The translations under genes were made by a program, and so were the position numbers. The notes below the pieces were generated by a model. It was not told the origin of the DNA and did not search any database. It worked only from the letters and a program-made list of their open reading frames with translations. A stretch of 20,676 nt of DNA. Origin: a virus. The stretch is from the UHGV virus genome UHGV-0171440. One strand, 5' to 3'. Numbering within the stretch: the stretch's first letter is position 1; every line of letters begins with the position of its first letter. This document shows positions 1 to 8,041 of this stretch, one piece after another.

Positions 1-202
1 TAAGGCTTTATGCTAGATGCATTCCGCTTTGCGACTCAACCTTTTTCACCTAAAGGATGACAAAATCACATAAATAATTTAAATATCATAGCATTAGATT
101 ACTTAATGATTAAATAATAGACTGCAAAACGCGACAAAACACAACATATCCAGTCACTATGAATCAACTACTTAGATAGTATTAGTGACCTGTAACAGAG
201 CA

Positions 203-243
203 TTAGCGCAAGGTGATTTTTTGTCTTCTTGCGCTAATTTTTT
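203..243 (+). terminator. Candidate intrinsic terminator on the plus strand, downstream of the tailspike region
   Basis: 10-bp inverted repeat TTAGCGCAAG (203-212) / CTTGCGCTAA (228-237) followed by TTTTTT (238-243). The 15-nt loop is longer than typical. Confidence 0.35.
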
Positions 244-346
244 GACATAAAAACATGCCGCACTCCTGAGAAGCACAAAGCCTTGCAATCCAGTACAAAG
301 CTTTGTTTGTCTCAGTTTTGTCTCACATTGCCGGCATAATCCTTAA

Positions 347-361
347 CCCGCACCAGGCGGG
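347..361 (-). terminator. Weak candidate terminator hairpin after the tailspike stop
   Basis: GC-rich 5-bp inverted repeat CCCGC/GCGGG with a 5-nt loop just 3' of the tailspike stop; the following sequence on the minus strand is only partly T-rich. Confidence 0.2.
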
Positions 362-376
362 TCATGGTTGTTGCTG

Positions 377-1597
377 TCATGTAATGGTTACTGGCACCTC
401 GACAGATATTCCGTGAATCGGCTCGTTAATCAGTATCTTGATGTTTCCTGACACGTTCTCATCGAAAACAACGTCAAAGACAAGATTTTGAAATATTTGG
501 TTCCGTCGAGATACTAGTGCCTGATGAAAGTAGTTCACAGGCAGATGAAGTGTTGCATTGACCTTGGGTTCAAATGAAATTTCTGGCTCCACTACCGATA
601 CGTATCGTGTTGAAACATCCTGTGGTAAGGATGTTGGGGATAGTTCGATGGTCACCGTTTTCCCGTTGACCTTTACACTCTTCTTCGCAAGAACATTCAG
701 CGGTGAATAGGCGTGATACACAGAAAGGAGAAGTCTCGCCCTGCTTGCCTTGTCAACAATGCTAATAGTCGAAAGCGCATCCCCGCCAGAAGAGTAAGAG
801 GAAACAATATCTACAATACCAGAGTCCTGGGTTATCTTTCGGACTGACAACGTACTGAACCTGTCCTCAAAATCAGTTTCCACCACCAGTTCCGAGAACT
901 GAGCATTCAGCAGGGAAAATGGAACGCTGTAGTGGTAGTTTTTTGTTGCCCTGAACGAATACACAGGGGAAACAAATCTCGGAACCGTTGGATACGCTGC
1001 GGCGGGTCTGTCCAGTTTTGTCGGGTAAGCCGGAACCTTGTAGCCAGCCAGCAGAATATATCTCAACTCGTCGTCTTCGTTCGGTGGATCTATCTCAGCC
1101 ACCTCAACGAGGTTGTAATCATGGTCCTGATTGATAATGGCAACAGGATCACCATAGGCATCAAACCCCAGCAGCTTGTGTTTCCGCTGGTCTACATTTG
1201 GTAGTGGTTCGACTGAAGGCTCAGGAACACGCAGGAAGTGCTTTGTCGCTAAAGCCTTCCCCGCCCCGCTGGCAGGCATAATGTTCGGATAATAGTAAAC
1301 CTGCACATTATTCACGTCATAAACAACCATGCTGTAGGCATCGTCAGTGTAGAACTCAACGACAGCACCGTTATACACACAGTAGCCACCAGAATTAATA
1401 GAAAGAGGCTGTGACACAGGAATGAATTCCCCGCTCTCGTTTTCAATGTAAACGTTAATCTGGTTTTTCTTGATGACAGGGTCTTTGTCAGGCTTACCAA
1501 TATAGATTTGACCATTTGCTATTGGTCTCAGACTGTTTGGATAAGTGAATAACTGCGCAGGGATTCTGACGGCAACGTTTGGGTTAATTGTTGTCAT
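377..1597 (-). CDS. Tailspike / receptor-binding protein (406 aa) with a P22 gp9-like N-terminal head-binding domain and a short divergent C-terminal domain
   Basis: N-terminal ~110 aa (ANGQIYIGKPDKDPV...NQINVYIENESGEF...) resembles the P22 gp9 head-binding domain; the rest does not resemble the P22 beta-helix as I recall it. AGAGG Shine-Dalgarno 5 nt before the ATG. Last gene of the late operon. Confidence 0.8.
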   Translation of the reverse strand: MTTINPNVAVRIPAQLFTYPNSLRPIANGQIYIGKPDKDPVIKKNQINVYIENESGEFIPVSQPLSINSGGYCVYNGAVVEFYTDDAYSMVVYDVNNVQVYYYPNIMPASGAGKALATKHFLRVPEPSVEPLPNVDQRKHKLLGFDAYGDPVAIINQDHDYNLVEVAEIDPPNEDDELRYILLAGYKVPAYPTKLDRPAAAYPTVPRFVSPVYSFRATKNYHYSVPFSLLNAQFSELVVETDFEDRFSTLSVRKITQDSGIVDIVSSYSSGGDALSTISIVDKASRARLLLSVYHAYSPLNVLAKKSVKVNGKTVTIELSPTSLPQDVSTRYVSVVEPEISFEPKVNATLHLPVNYFHQALVSRRNQIFQNLVFDVVFDENVSGNIKILINEPIHGISVEVPVTIT

Positions 1598-2695: not shown

Positions 2696-3322
2696 TCAAT
2701 GAATCCATTCCTCGCCGCGCAGTTTTGTCAGCATTGGCTGAGCGTTCTTTACGACAAAATTGTTGGTATCAAGATTCTTCATTTCACGAAGAAGTGATTT
2801 CTTGGTTTCTTCTGACATATAGCGAGTCTCATATGCAATATCGTAAATTCTTCCTGAAAGCTCAGAACCAATTTGCTTCATTCCTGGGTAGATGTGTTTG
2901 CACATTTGTTGACTCTTCTCCATCCACAATTGTAAGTAGCAGAGATTAACCAGTTCTTCGTCAGTAAACTGTTTTGCAATCGGTGAGCATTCTGCCTGCC
3001 GATCCAAAATATCCAGCACCCAGCGGCGGAACTCTTTTGCTACAGGAGTGCGAGCAAACATCGCGATTAGGTGGGCACCGCGTAGTGAGAAAACTCGCAC
3101 TTTTTTGCGATAATTTCCTGAGGTACTCACTTCGAGTACCTGAGTCATTCCGGCGCTAAACTCATCGCTATACTTGTTATAAATCATTGTTACTGCACGA
3201 CTATTTGCGTATTTAAGTGCAGATGCAATATTAGATGATGTAAACCAAACACCATGCATATCACGGGTGGGCGCCAACTCAACTCCGTGGAAGTTGTAAT
3301 CTGATTTTGCTACAATGTTCAT
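2696..3322 (-). CDS. Antirepressor (Ant-like) with a Bro-N domain, about 208 aa
   Basis: Start set at the internal ATG (MNIVAKSDYNFHG...) preceded by AAGGAA-n6; N-terminal half resembles the Bro-N antirepressor fold (…VAKEFRRWVLDIL). The longer ORF in the track runs into the arc-like gene in another frame. Confidence 0.75.
   Translation of the reverse strand: MNIVAKSDYNFHGVELAPTRDMHGVWFTSSNIASALKYANSRAVTMIYNKYSDEFSAGMTQVLEVSTSGNYRKKVRVFSLRGAHLIAMFARTPVAKEFRRWVLDILDRQAECSPIAKQFTDEELVNLCYLQLWMEKSQQMCKHIYPGMKQIGSELSGRIYDIAYETRYMSEETKKSLLREMKNLDTNNFVVKNAQPMLTKLRGEEWIH
3308..3316 (+). promoter_or_regulatory. Candidate extended -10 promoter element (TGcTACAAT) for a sar-like antisense RNA
   Basis: TGn plus TACAAT on the plus strand just inside the 5' end of the Bro-N antirepressor gene; no good -35 (TGGAAG, 3/6). 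Confidence 0.35.
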
Positions 3323-4497: not shown

Positions 4498-4963
4498 ATC
4501 AATTTCCATTTCGTGAAAACCACAAACATGCTAATAGCAAAACAAAATAATGTGAAGTGCGTACATAAAAAATGTGCGTTTAATAACCACGAGCACGCAG
4601 AGAACTCGAAGAATAATCACACCAACTACACGAAAAGCTAAATACAGACATTAAATATTGTGCAATAGTTATAAATACAACATTTAGTACACACTAAAAT
4701 TATTATACATAAATATATCATTAAAATGATAATCAAGCCGGTTCACACCTCGGCTTTTTAATGTGCGGTTCGCAGAACTCCACAAGGCCACTTTCAAATA
4801 GTGGCGCACTCATTTTTGGCAGTTTTCCCAGATTGAGATTTTTCATCATATCTTGAGATACTAATGGTTTAACCGATAACACTGCACAAAAAGCACAAAC
4901 TTCCCTTTTCTTTTGCCCATAGGATCAGCCCAGTTATGGCTAATTGCTGCAATAGGAGGGCAT

Positions 4964-5860
4964 GTGATTATTGGTAATAGGGTAATGGTTGAGGATAAAG
5001 GTGGACTTACCGCCAAGGACAAAGTGAACGAAAGTTCAAATCATCCTGAATATGAATACAGGATGGTATCTTTATCCATGTCATCAAACAATGCCGCAGC
5101 AATCACCCGTCGCGATATCTCAATCCATATATTTGACGGCGAACCTTTAACCAGAGGGGGGCGCACGCATTATAAGAGCATGTTTGAAAAGGATCTTTCA
5201 GAAAACAGATATATAAAAGCCAATATTAATATGGATTCAGTATCTGATAATATCTTTTGCTTATCCGCAACTGATAGTGGAATGCTTCCAGTCCGACCAT
5301 CTCAGATTATGATATCTATACGTGAAATAAGAGGAGGTAAGTCACCAGAAACATACTGCGGCAAATTTTATTTCAATGATGAAAATGAAGAAAGAGAGTA
5401 CTCTTTTAAGAAGGGAGATAACTCACTTTTCATTTATCTAAATCTTGATTCTTCTATCTTTTCCGACATATTTAACAGCTTAAAAAATGGAGACACGACA
5501 ATTGAATTTGAGATCAACTTTCCTGCTTACGCAGACTGGCTAGATTGGATGGCGGGGGGAGGTTGGCCTACGACATATATCATCAATCCAGCACGTGATG
5601 ATGAAAACTTCATCTCCATAACGAGCATATCGACCTCCCAATCAGCTAATTGGAGAGTTGAAGATGAAGAAACTGAAGTCATTAAAAATGATGACACTTG
5701 CAATTATGAAAATGATATTGAACATAAAGATGTAAATGCATCAATCATTGCCACCAATGAACTTATATCTAACCATTCTATCCACACAAAACGGTTAACA
5801 TCTTACTTAGCAATAATCACATTTTGCTTAATAATATTAACTATTAAGGTTTGTTTCTAA
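4964..5860 (+). CDS. Hypothetical acidic, Ser/Asn-rich protein with a single C-terminal transmembrane anchor; start uncertain (TTG 4913, GTG 4964 after AGGAGG, or ATG 4985)
   Basis: Long ORF opposite to the late operon and convergent with the gp16-like gene; visibly AT-rich relative to the late genes; C-terminus LTSYLAIITFCLIILTIKVCF is a hydrophobic tail anchor; no catalytic motif recognised. Confidence 0.7.
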   Translation: MIIGNRVMVEDKGGLTAKDKVNESSNHPEYEYRMVSLSMSSNNAAAITRRDISIHIFDGEPLTRGGRTHYKSMFEKDLSENRYIKANINMDSVSDNIFCLSATDSGMLPVRPSQIMISIREIRGGKSPETYCGKFYFNDENEEREYSFKKGDNSLFIYLNLDSSIFSDIFNSLKNGDTTIEFEINFPAYADWLDWMAGGGWPTTYIINPARDDENFISITSISTSQSANWRVEDEETEVIKNDDTCNYENDIEHKDVNASIIATNELISNHSIHTKRLTSYLAIITFCLIILTIKVCF

Positions 5861-5911: not shown

Positions 5912-8041
5912 TTATTGTATTTTTGATTGTGCGTCTGTATCTGCGCTATCCTGTTGAGATAACCACGTGGTAAACCCAAGACGTGCAATTGTGCGCCTGT
6001 CACGTTCTGGAAGTGATTCAAAAAAACGCCTCCAGTGAGGAGAGCGCCTGATGCGAGATTCGGTAACATGGTCAGGCGCTTTGCCAAGCAGATTTTTAAC
6101 CGCACTCTGGAAAGCTGGTGAAGAAATTAACTTATCTGCGGCATCCGTCGCCCCTGCACCGCCTGCAATCTGGGCTTTACGTGCAACCATTGTGCCAATA
6201 TCATGGCCTGCAACAGCCCCCAGTGGCCCATAGAATGAACCAACCATAGTACCTGCTCTTTGTGCATATTTCGATACCAGTTGATAGGGAGTCGTGACCT
6301 TACTGAATCTGTCAGTAAACTCATTCAGCTTTCCGGTAGAAATTTCGTGTGATTTGGCATTTTTTATTGCTCTGGCGACTTTATAGGCATCGTACAAGCC
6401 GCGCATTGCCTCTCTCGGCAGATGTCTGGCTAGTAATTTAAGTTGCCCATGATGCTGCATGTTTTGCCACCAGTCAGCAAAACCAGACGGATTAAAGTCT
6501 GCCCCACGTTTCCCCAGTGAAAGCATATCCCTTAGCGCTGTTCCGATAAGTTCTGTTCTTAGAGTACGTGATGGCGTGTTTTGCATTATATCTAGGAATG
6601 TTTTTGAATTTCCTTTTGCCATAGACTGGAGAGCATTTGTTGTTTTGTAAGCAATATCTCCGTTCAGCGTTTTTCCACGGAGATTTATCATCTGACTCTC
6701 TATATTTTTTCGCATGGCGACAAGGCGCTGCGCCACCTCAAAATCCCGCGCGTATCCTGAATCAGAAAGGATGGCTTTCTGGTCTTCTGACAAAGAAGCG
6801 TACAACCTTGATAAGGCTGTTCTGTCTGCGTCTTTATACGGCCCTGACTTTTTATCCAGCGCATCTCCAACAAGCCTCCTCTGCTTGTTTAAATTTGCGT
6901 ACGTCAGGATACCCTCAGGCCCCGGATTTACTGCTTTAAAAACCTGCTTTTCAATTAATTCGAGATTCTCCCATCCCCCCAAATCATCGGCGATTTTCTC
7001 CAGCATAGCGCTTGTTTTAGGGGCTTCAACTTCTGCTCCCGGAATCATGGCGGAATCAACACGCTTATATAGCTGGTCGCTACGTTGTATTAGCGCTTCC
7101 ATCCGGTTATCTATATTAGAGATATACTTTTCATTCATTCCCAGCGCATCGGAAGCACCTGCAATATCATCAATTATCCTGCCGGCACTGGAAGCCAGTT
7201 CACTTATTGCTTTGTCCTCCTGAGTTTTAAGGGCGGATCCGGTCCGTGATTTTATTGCCTGCTCTACTGCCTGATACTGAGCATTCCCTGACAGGTGAGA
7301 AGGAAGAATTGACTCAACCCCCAGTCTTTTGGCGGCTTCGGCAATGTCTTTTTGTGGTTTTATATCCAGTTCCCTTACCGCCGTGGATAAATCTGGATTT
7401 TTTTGTGTCGACAACTCTCTTAGTTTCCTTTCCGTTGTATTGGCTCCATCAATACTGGCACTCCTTCCGGTTACTTTCCCCGCCACTTTTCGAATAGCTG
7501 GGCCAGCGAGTTCTGCCACGGGACCAGCCACAGCCCCAATAGCAGCACCGGAAGCAACATCGCTATTTGTTCCATTGGCTACAATAGCCCCTTCTCCAGC
7601 ACCAAGCCCTGCGGCGGCAGCCAGCCTTGCCGCCCCTTTCGGAACCTGAGAAATAATCCCACCACCACTAACAAATGGTGCTGCTTGTCCAACGAACTCA
7701 CCAACATCTTGTGCGGTTGATGGTTTTGCCGCTAACTTCTGCTGTAGAGACTGAATTGCGGCTTGCTCTTCTGGTGTCATATCCTGAAATAGACCAACAC
7801 CTTTACCAACATCCATCAATCCACTGAGAACGCCATACATAAAACGGTCGAAACCGTTAGCATTATTAACAACATTTTCCTGCCTGGAATTTTCCTCTGG
7901 TGAAACCAAAGGTGATTGCTGCTGCTCTGGTTGGGAATCAAGCACAAAACCATCAGGAAGCTGTGAACTATCAGGAAACTGTGAGTTATCAGGTTGTTCA
8001 TCGAGCACAAAACCTTCCGGTAAGATTACATTTGCTGCCAT
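5912..8041 (-). CDS. Ejection (internal virion) protein, gp16-like, 709 aa
   Basis: Third large gene after the gp7- and gp20-like genes; Gly/Ala-rich stretches; start overlaps the gp20-like stop. Assignment is mainly by position. Confidence 0.7.
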   Translation of the reverse strand: MAANVILPEGFVLDEQPDNSQFPDSSQLPDGFVLDSQPEQQQSPLVSPEENSRQENVVNNANGFDRFMYGVLSGLMDVGKGVGLFQDMTPEEQAAIQSLQQKLAAKPSTAQDVGEFVGQAAPFVSGGGIISQVPKGAARLAAAAGLGAGEGAIVANGTNSDVASGAAIGAVAGPVAELAGPAIRKVAGKVTGRSASIDGANTTERKLRELSTQKNPDLSTAVRELDIKPQKDIAEAAKRLGVESILPSHLSGNAQYQAVEQAIKSRTGSALKTQEDKAISELASSAGRIIDDIAGASDALGMNEKYISNIDNRMEALIQRSDQLYKRVDSAMIPGAEVEAPKTSAMLEKIADDLGGWENLELIEKQVFKAVNPGPEGILTYANLNKQRRLVGDALDKKSGPYKDADRTALSRLYASLSEDQKAILSDSGYARDFEVAQRLVAMRKNIESQMINLRGKTLNGDIAYKTTNALQSMAKGNSKTFLDIMQNTPSRTLRTELIGTALRDMLSLGKRGADFNPSGFADWWQNMQHHGQLKLLARHLPREAMRGLYDAYKVARAIKNAKSHEISTGKLNEFTDRFSKVTTPYQLVSKYAQRAGTMVGSFYGPLGAVAGHDIGTMVARKAQIAGGAGATDAADKLISSPAFQSAVKNLLGKAPDHVTESRIRRSPHWRRFFESLPERDRRTIARLGFTTWLSQQDSADTDAQSKIQ

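Follow-up and report, generated by a model that had tools for sequence, protein, structure and literature searches.

The tailspike end of a P22-like prophage: a probable attR at the HK022 site, with sib/tI and a separate conserved 55-bp element

The window analysed here, i.e., the whole 20,676-nucleotide stretch of UHGV virus genome UHGV-0171440, most probably begins at the junction between a P22-like prophage and the Escherichia coli chromosome. In our reading, to which we assign a probability of roughly 0.85, the left end of the window is the attR of a prophage integrated at the HK022 site, the hairpin at 198-245 is the sib/tI site, and the stretch at 272-325 is a separate conserved element that likely provides another terminator or insulator and, in addition, a joint for module exchange. 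For annotators, this means that the window is to be handled as a prophage-chromosome junction.

The motifs that had drawn attention to the region downstream of the tailspike gene are all there. The plus strand carries a hairpin with a T6 tail (202-243), whose stem can be extended to span 195-245, and, as the original prediction had stated, the 12-bp palindrome ACAAAGCTTTGT lies at 295-306 and the 9-bp direct repeat TTTGTCTCA at 306-314 and 317-325, 11 nt from start to start. The AT-richness that had been described is moderate, with a GC content of 40.6% for 198-330 vs 48.1% for the coding part of the window. Folded as plus-strand RNA, 193-250 reached -22.9 kcal/mol (z = -5.9), a value equalled by 0 of 200 shuffles; the hairpin was absent from a simple terminator scan because that scan allows loops of 3-8 nt, and the loop here is 15 nt long. 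Taken alone, neither the palindrome nor the direct repeat exceeds what chance would give: the window holds six 12-bp palindromes vs 5.0 +/- 2.2 expected from dinucleotide shuffles, and two loci with a 9-bp repeat at most 15 nt apart vs 0.85 +/- 1.1 in shuffles. We nonetheless count them as real features, because the block that contains them is conserved across many phages. No credible ORF was found across 198-330, which is crossed only by TTG- or GTG-started ORFs of at most 38 aa. The features discussed below are listed in Table 1.

Table 1. Features at the left end of the window, with the basis on which each was assigned.
Feature	Position	Strand	Basis or detail
E. coli chromosome, portion of the torS-torT intergenic region next to torT (bacterial arm of attR)	1-40		Identity with MG1655
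att core common to attB(HK022) and HK022 attP, CTTTTTCACCTAAAG	41-55		Crossover within the core
P arm of a lambda/HK022-type attP	56-197	+	Alignment with lambda and HK022; the HK022 record annotates the stretch as attP
Int arm-type site P2, CAGTCACTAT	146-165	+	Aligned with the 'int 2' binding site of the lambda record
Int arm-type site P1, inverted GGTCACTAAT	178-197	+	Aligned with the 'int 1' binding site of the lambda record
sib/tI, int-distal intrinsic terminator (predicted)	195-245	+	Stem 202-212/228-238, T6 238-243
Arms of the sib/tI hairpin, ATTAGCGCAAG / CTTGCGCTAAT	202-212 / 228-238	+	Every base paired; T6 run at 238-243
Spacer, homologous to lambda 27,5xx	246-271	+	Lambda alignment, inverted repeat, fold
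Conserved ~55-bp int-distal element	272-325	+	Arms 274-287/294-307, loop 288-293, TTTT 316-319
GC-rich hairpin, ACCCGC-ACCAG-GCGGGT	346-362	-	15 nt past the tailspike stop codon, no U run after it
Tailspike gene (406 aa), convergent on the region	377-1597	-	Pfam Head_binding PF09008, E = 7.7e-37, residues 1-107; PHROG tailspike families

The junction itself was established by a three-way alignment of the window with the attB of E. coli MG1655 and the attP of HK022. Positions 1-55 are identical to the torT-side sequence of MG1655, and the window tracks attB up to position 55 and the HK022 attP from position 56 on, with the shared core reading CTT(T/A)TTCACCTAAAG at 41-55. Bacterial sequence from the torT side is thereby joined to the phage P arm at the common core. 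Given torT-side chromosome at 1-55 and an HK022-type P arm from 56, the window therefore holds attR, the int-distal end of the prophage; int itself lies outside the window and is expected at the other prophage end. In line with this, E. coli genomes matching window 1-330 have the start of torT 18 bp left of the matched stretch, with the gene read away from it, and metagenome contigs encoding the identical tailspike protein carry a periplasmic-binding-protein gene (torT) in the same place. HK022 integrates exactly between torS and torT, a site at which ~5% of E. coli genomes carry a prophage, all with HK022-like integrases, and attL, with int, is on the torS side of it (PMC6814406). Integration at attB(HK022), the site occupied by this prophage, is known to rewire torS and the respiration of TMAO; it is reported to replace the torS promoter and to shut off aerobic torCAD expression (PMC6814406). 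The suggestion that the late region might end in part of a recombination or regulatory site is thus borne out, by attR (the P arm of attP) together with sib, and a comparison with the attP side of P22-like phages, as had been proposed, was the correct check. The original prediction had not noticed that the window opens with ~55 bases of bacterial DNA.

The window has virion genes of the P22 kind: those for terminase, portal, scaffold, coat and ejection proteins all lie on the minus strand, and the series ends in the tailspike gene. Pfam gave no match for the remaining ~300 residues of the tailspike beyond its head-binding domain, and megablast of the tailspike DNA found no match in 50,697 phage records or in 5,426 complete E. 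coli genomes; the identical tailspike protein is encoded on at least 10 metagenome or Logan contigs. The GC-rich hairpin past the tailspike stop codon has a predicted fold of -15.2 kcal/mol (z = -2.3) and may be a weak 3' end or a stabiliser of the late transcript. Further into the window, a 315-aa ORF (4913-5860, plus strand) is situated in an immI-like region, between an Arc-like/anti-repressor cluster and the ejection-protein genes, with no match in Pfam or PHROG.

A sister prophage (L287, of which 7222-7660 correspond to window 1-400) encodes an identical tailspike and occupies the lambda site, ybhB-bioA. Its core is lambda-type and its inner P arm differs, and from window position ~136 onwards it is the same as the window (P2, P1, sib, the 55-bp element and the tailspike); the hairpin at 346-362 accompanies the tailspike gene in this lambda-site prophage also. 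It is established that the integrases of lambda and HK022 have arm sites in common and differ in core recognition, as reportedly shown by Yagil et al. 1989 and in later work of the Weisberg laboratory. The sharing of arm sites across a switch of the core, as seen in L287, fits this picture. One phage lineage thus comes with two integration specificities, and its lambda-site and HK022-site versions use the same P1/P2-sib block.

The T6-tailed hairpin is, as judged by alignment, a near-identical copy of the already well-known tI/sib of lambda and HK022. It lies on the int-sense strand and starts at 202, just outside P1; it consists of an 11-bp perfect stem and a T6 run; and it is homologous both to the annotated sib of HK022 and to the lambda stem. 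In the HK022 record, ACAGAGCATTAGCGCAAGGTGATTTTTGTCTTCTTGCGCTAATTTTTTGT is labelled "sib transcription processing site", and window 195-245 matches the HK022 sib at 50 of 51 positions plus one extra T in the loop, with the last base differing. The stem and the T run are invariant in an alignment of lambda, HK022 and the window, and a 'Transcription terminator tI' is annotated at the homologous position in the record of the lambda derivative O276. The three sequences also fold alike, each with a 12-pair inner stem, a one-base bulge and an outer stem of 5-7 pairs with the U run, at fold energies of -22.9 to -28 kcal/mol (z = -5.6 to -7.0). For read-through RNA, an extension of the stem by pairing of 196-200 with 240-244 is predicted in silico, with the same architecture as in lambda and HK022.

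Lambda and HK022 each share part of this arrangement with the window. In lambda, the site has the same position just beyond P1, an identical 11-bp stem, a T6 tail and an extended outer stem, and the homology runs for ~65 nt past the terminator. The window differs from it in a loop that is one T longer, in an outer sib stem with one pair fewer and in its HK022-type att core, and the window's phage has P22-like virion genes and a convergent tailspike gene in place of the lambda b region. HK022 (record X51962) has the same core, P arm and sib (50/51 plus one T) and the same chromosomal site, torS-torT, but it diverges from the window at 247, directly after the T run, and has no 55-bp element there. 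Moreover, HK022 is a siphovirus, unlike the P22-like phage of the window.

A lack of conservation in related phages, which would have spoken against the original prediction, is decisively not what is seen: of 5426 complete E. coli genomes, 2066 contain the segment comprising P1 and sib at an identity of at least 90%, with as many as six copies in one genome. The original prediction had also placed the hairpin in the right category, i.e., a termination signal for a convergent gene outside the window, and had missed that this is the sib-tI of lambda and HK022; the gene that the hairpin and its T6 run would serve is int, in the circular form of the phage. A search of Rfam in E-value mode (window 1-700 and the lambda, K-12 CPS-53 and phage L loci) returned no family for the sib/tI hairpin and none for the 55-bp element. 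As a side observation, phage DN1 (L285 599-760, equal to lambda 27372-27533) has a 162-nt 'antisense RNA' annotated opposite int, an annotation said to derive from that of BL21(DE3). This 'antisense RNA' extends across what lambda retains of the 55-bp element as far as the sib T run, and Rfam found nothing in the region.

The homology with lambda suggests how the site would operate. In the circular phage, int would lie upstream on the plus strand and be read toward attP and sib. As in lambda, transcripts from the CII-dependent int promoter would stop at the tI hairpin with its T6 run and be stable, and antiterminated pL transcripts would pass tI, such that the stem could lengthen to 195-245. 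RNase III would then cut this longer stem (a step of sib retroregulation reportedly described by Guarneros et al. 1982 and Schmeissner et al. 1984), and the int message would be degraded from its 3' end, i.e., it would be retroregulated. In the prophage, sib at attR and int at attL would be a prophage length apart, and the pL transcripts made upon induction would lack sib; with sib this far from int, Int could be made on induction, together with Xis. By this analogy, retroregulation of the lambda kind probably applies to the int of the prophage. PMC5300877 and PMC2951348 describe the role of sib.

The second conserved feature, on the far side of the spacer, is widespread: a search with window 244-400 found ~272-325 to be common to 173 phage records with quite different neighbours, and a degenerate pattern scan together with a tail-anchored scan yielded ~150 further loci in IMG/VR. 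The element is present in 2661 of 5426 complete E. coli genomes, including that of K-12, where it lies between intS and yfdG of CPS-53. The short conserved hairpin beside sib is the mark of a highly active mosaic joint, which is found in roughly half of the E. coli genomes. In genome contigs, ~8 true copies were recognised among the matches listed for a 16-base pattern, including copies from E. coli and Citrobacter, the pattern being loose and most of its matches being due to chance. The homology of the window to lambda continues to ~310, and that to other prophages stops at 321-330.

With regard to its neighbours, an int gene on the same strand ends upstream of the element in 98 of 159 loci. 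The 3' end of int is at most 40 nt away in 72 of these 98 (IntS/Sf6/CPS-53 type), 41-200 nt away in 18 (P22/epsilon34 type, after attP) and further off in 8, including lambda, which has attP and sib in between. The int families concerned (IntS/Sf6-type, P22-type and lambda/HK022-type) are three unrelated ones. Downstream, gtrA or oac starts on the same strand at a distance of 100-800 nt in 49 of 159 loci and of 100-199 nt in 39 of 159, mostly at ~127 nt. For the 150 loci whose flanks are complete, we counted 15 families of left flanks and 62 of right flanks, in 79 combinations. With few left and many right flank families, the element is therefore linked to the int side, at a mosaic joint of high activity. 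The breakpoints are scattered within the block or shortly past it: its first ~40 nt are all that remains in lambda, one locus (L146) has the right half only, and two others (L036 and L120) break after GTGTG.

These 79 left-right combinations, with breakpoints at differing places in or just after the block, could also be expected of a 55-bp block that has no function of its own, i.e., a shared sequence kept by recurrent recombination among temperate phages, be it a module linker or a relic of the sequence upstream of gtr or oac. The 39 loci in which gtrA or oac starts 100-199 nt downstream, as well as covariation that is not significant (see below), point the same way. We nevertheless regard this reading as rather unlikely. 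The element retains 84% mean column identity over three int families, several host genera and otherwise unrelated flanks, where a neutral relic would be expected to decay; it also occurs without gtr, and in P22 gtr expression does not require any sequence lying further than 115 bp upstream of its start site (PMC2909390).

In structure, the element is a quasi-palindrome in which CACAAAGCcTTGCA and TGCAAaGCTTTGTG flank a 6-nt loop; its consensus is AGCACAAAGCCTTGCAATCCAGTGCAAAGCTTTGTGTGTCTCAGTTTTGTCTCA. A 14-pair hairpin followed by TTTT is possible, with stem positions 295 and 307 mismatched in the window, and the U run starts 8 nt past the main stem unless a weaker outer stem forms, for which CTGAGA at 266-271 can pair with TCTCAG at 310-315. 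The 12-bp palindrome at 295-306 is the inner palindrome of the element's 3' arm, the repeat copy at 306-314 covers the end of this arm and the outer stem, and the copy at 317-325 is the U-rich tail. That the palindrome and the repeats spaced by 11 bp are protein-binding sites, one of the options raised in the original prediction, is not supported; they belong to a conserved hairpin, as its 3' arm and its U-rich tail.

Among 68 distinct sequences of the element, 89% of the pair cells form pairs, and in 81 of 103 unique sequences TTTT is found at most 18 nt 3' of the plus-strand stem. Against a shuffle control, covariation was insignificant (54 of 500 shuffles reached the observed score, with the same 68 distinct sequences). 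Double changes occur at one pair only (C-G to U-A, in one lineage), RNAalifold gave only a weak consensus for the element, and the loop is conserved as strongly as the stem. In the lambda-site sister prophage (L287), the C·A mismatch of the window at 286/295 becomes U-A. The lineage with the double changes, a divergent one (L132 and 15 similar loci, containing ATGTAAAGCCTTGCAAGCCATTGTGAGGCCTTATGTG), has five changes in the 3' arm, four of which keep or improve pairing on the plus strand, two of them as G·U pairs that would be mismatched on the other strand. These two lineage-specific compensations, in the L132 lineage and in L287, are few, yet suggestive.

A rival reading takes the palindrome and the 11-bp-spaced repeats as sites for a regulatory protein, e.g., CII/C1 (TTGC-N6-TTGC), driving a promoter where the late region ends. 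The minus strand of the element reads TTG(C/T)-N6-TTGC-N6-TTG(T/C), i.e., TTGC-like repeats with a 10-bp phasing as in CII/C1 activator sites (cf. PMC2629481). In P22-type copies, all three TTGC repeats are perfect, most copies of the element contain TGTCTCA or TGTCCC twice, and the authors of the epsilon34 genome noted TTGCN6TTGC sites at the element and suggested that CII controls gtr. However, the repeats lie on the strand opposite gtrA and int, the wrong orientation for either, and a promoter there would fire antisense into int; no conserved -10 follows them, as the flank at that place belongs to 15 families; and two of the three repeats in the window read TTGT. The element is, furthermore, present in phages with unrelated immunity regions, and the chance-level frequency of the palindrome and repeat, given above, likewise speaks against the idea. 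The element does not have the makeup of a CII/C1-dependent promoter, and we consider it very unlikely that such sites account for it.

A different role on the minus strand would be that the element and the hairpin at 346-362 make up the terminator of the late (tailspike) operon, and not an int-side signal. The hairpin is indeed more stable as minus-strand RNA, both in the window (-25.9 vs -17.5 kcal/mol for the plus strand) and in 85 of 103 unique copies, as the mismatch at its centre, C·A, is a G·U pair on that strand. Likewise, the record of phage L has a predicted terminator on the minus-equivalent strand, i.e., opposite int, and P22-type copies have TTTTT 4 nt past the minus-strand stem. 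Against this, the window and the IntS-type copies have no U run on the minus strand, the element remains associated with int (15 left families), the late or cargo side being the variable one (62), and in 49 of 159 loci the neighbour is gtrA or oac on the same strand and not a convergent gene. An exclusive role in late-operon termination is thus unlikely for the element at large, although a late-operon terminator is compatible with a bidirectional role, and a late-only one is possible for the P22-type copies.

Our best guess is that the element is an int-distal terminator or insulator, possibly bidirectional, that doubles as a mosaic joint. As such, 272-325 would act as a second terminator or insulator, perhaps in both directions, between the int unit and the next module, and would also provide a short shared sequence for module exchange. 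That the element itself terminates transcription is a tentative proposal, to which we give somewhat less than even odds. More doubtful still is the broader notion that temperate phages of enterobacteria have in the 55-bp block a cis-element of its own kind that has yet to be described, i.e., a hairpin distal to three int modules that would terminate transcription or insulate in both directions, or be processed like sib, and would be a preferred crossover for gtr/oac, tail-fibre ends and tailspikes. If the element does have a function of its own, it would offer a simple handle on the insulation and exchange of integrase modules. In the searchable literature we found no paper containing the element's sequence strings and no description of it. 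The K-12 Term-seq tables (Adams 2021) list no 3' end for intS/yfdG, which says little, as the gene is poorly expressed.

Likenesses to the element are found in phages L and epsilon34, in which rho-independent terminators predicted between attP and gtrA fall on the equivalent of 272-325. These are in-silico calls, made on the strand opposite int in L and flagged as doubtful in epsilon34, whose record notes a possible int terminator on the element. The P22-type copies have U runs on both sides, whereas the window copy has one on the plus strand only. A further likeness is with the 'boundary sequences' reportedly recognised between modules of lambdoid phages in the HK620 genome study of Clark et al. 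2001. As with these, a short conserved non-coding stretch is located at a mosaic joint between differing flanking modules; in the case of the element, a role in recombination is suggested by the reassortment of its flanks alone, in which respect it differs from them.

Two other identities for the element were considered and rejected. The first, att arm sites for IntS-type integrases, is at odds with the position of the CPS-53 att, which lies 5' of intS and ~1.3 kb away from the element; in Sf101, too, attP is upstream of int, though that int is not IntS-type. The second, the phase-variation region of gtr (OxyR/Dam), does not agree with an element devoid of GATC, with a window that has no gtr operon or with the finding that P22 gtr needs only the 115 bp upstream of its start site (PMC2909390).

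Lastly, an HK022-type core, P arm and copy of sib were also observed in phage vB_EcoP-611R6 (L003, ~2950-3188), an IntS-type P22-like phage. They are located between a tail-fibre gene fragment and an O-acetylase gene, ~0.5 kb from this phage's own 55-bp element, which directly follows int, and they appear to be the relic of an earlier att module.
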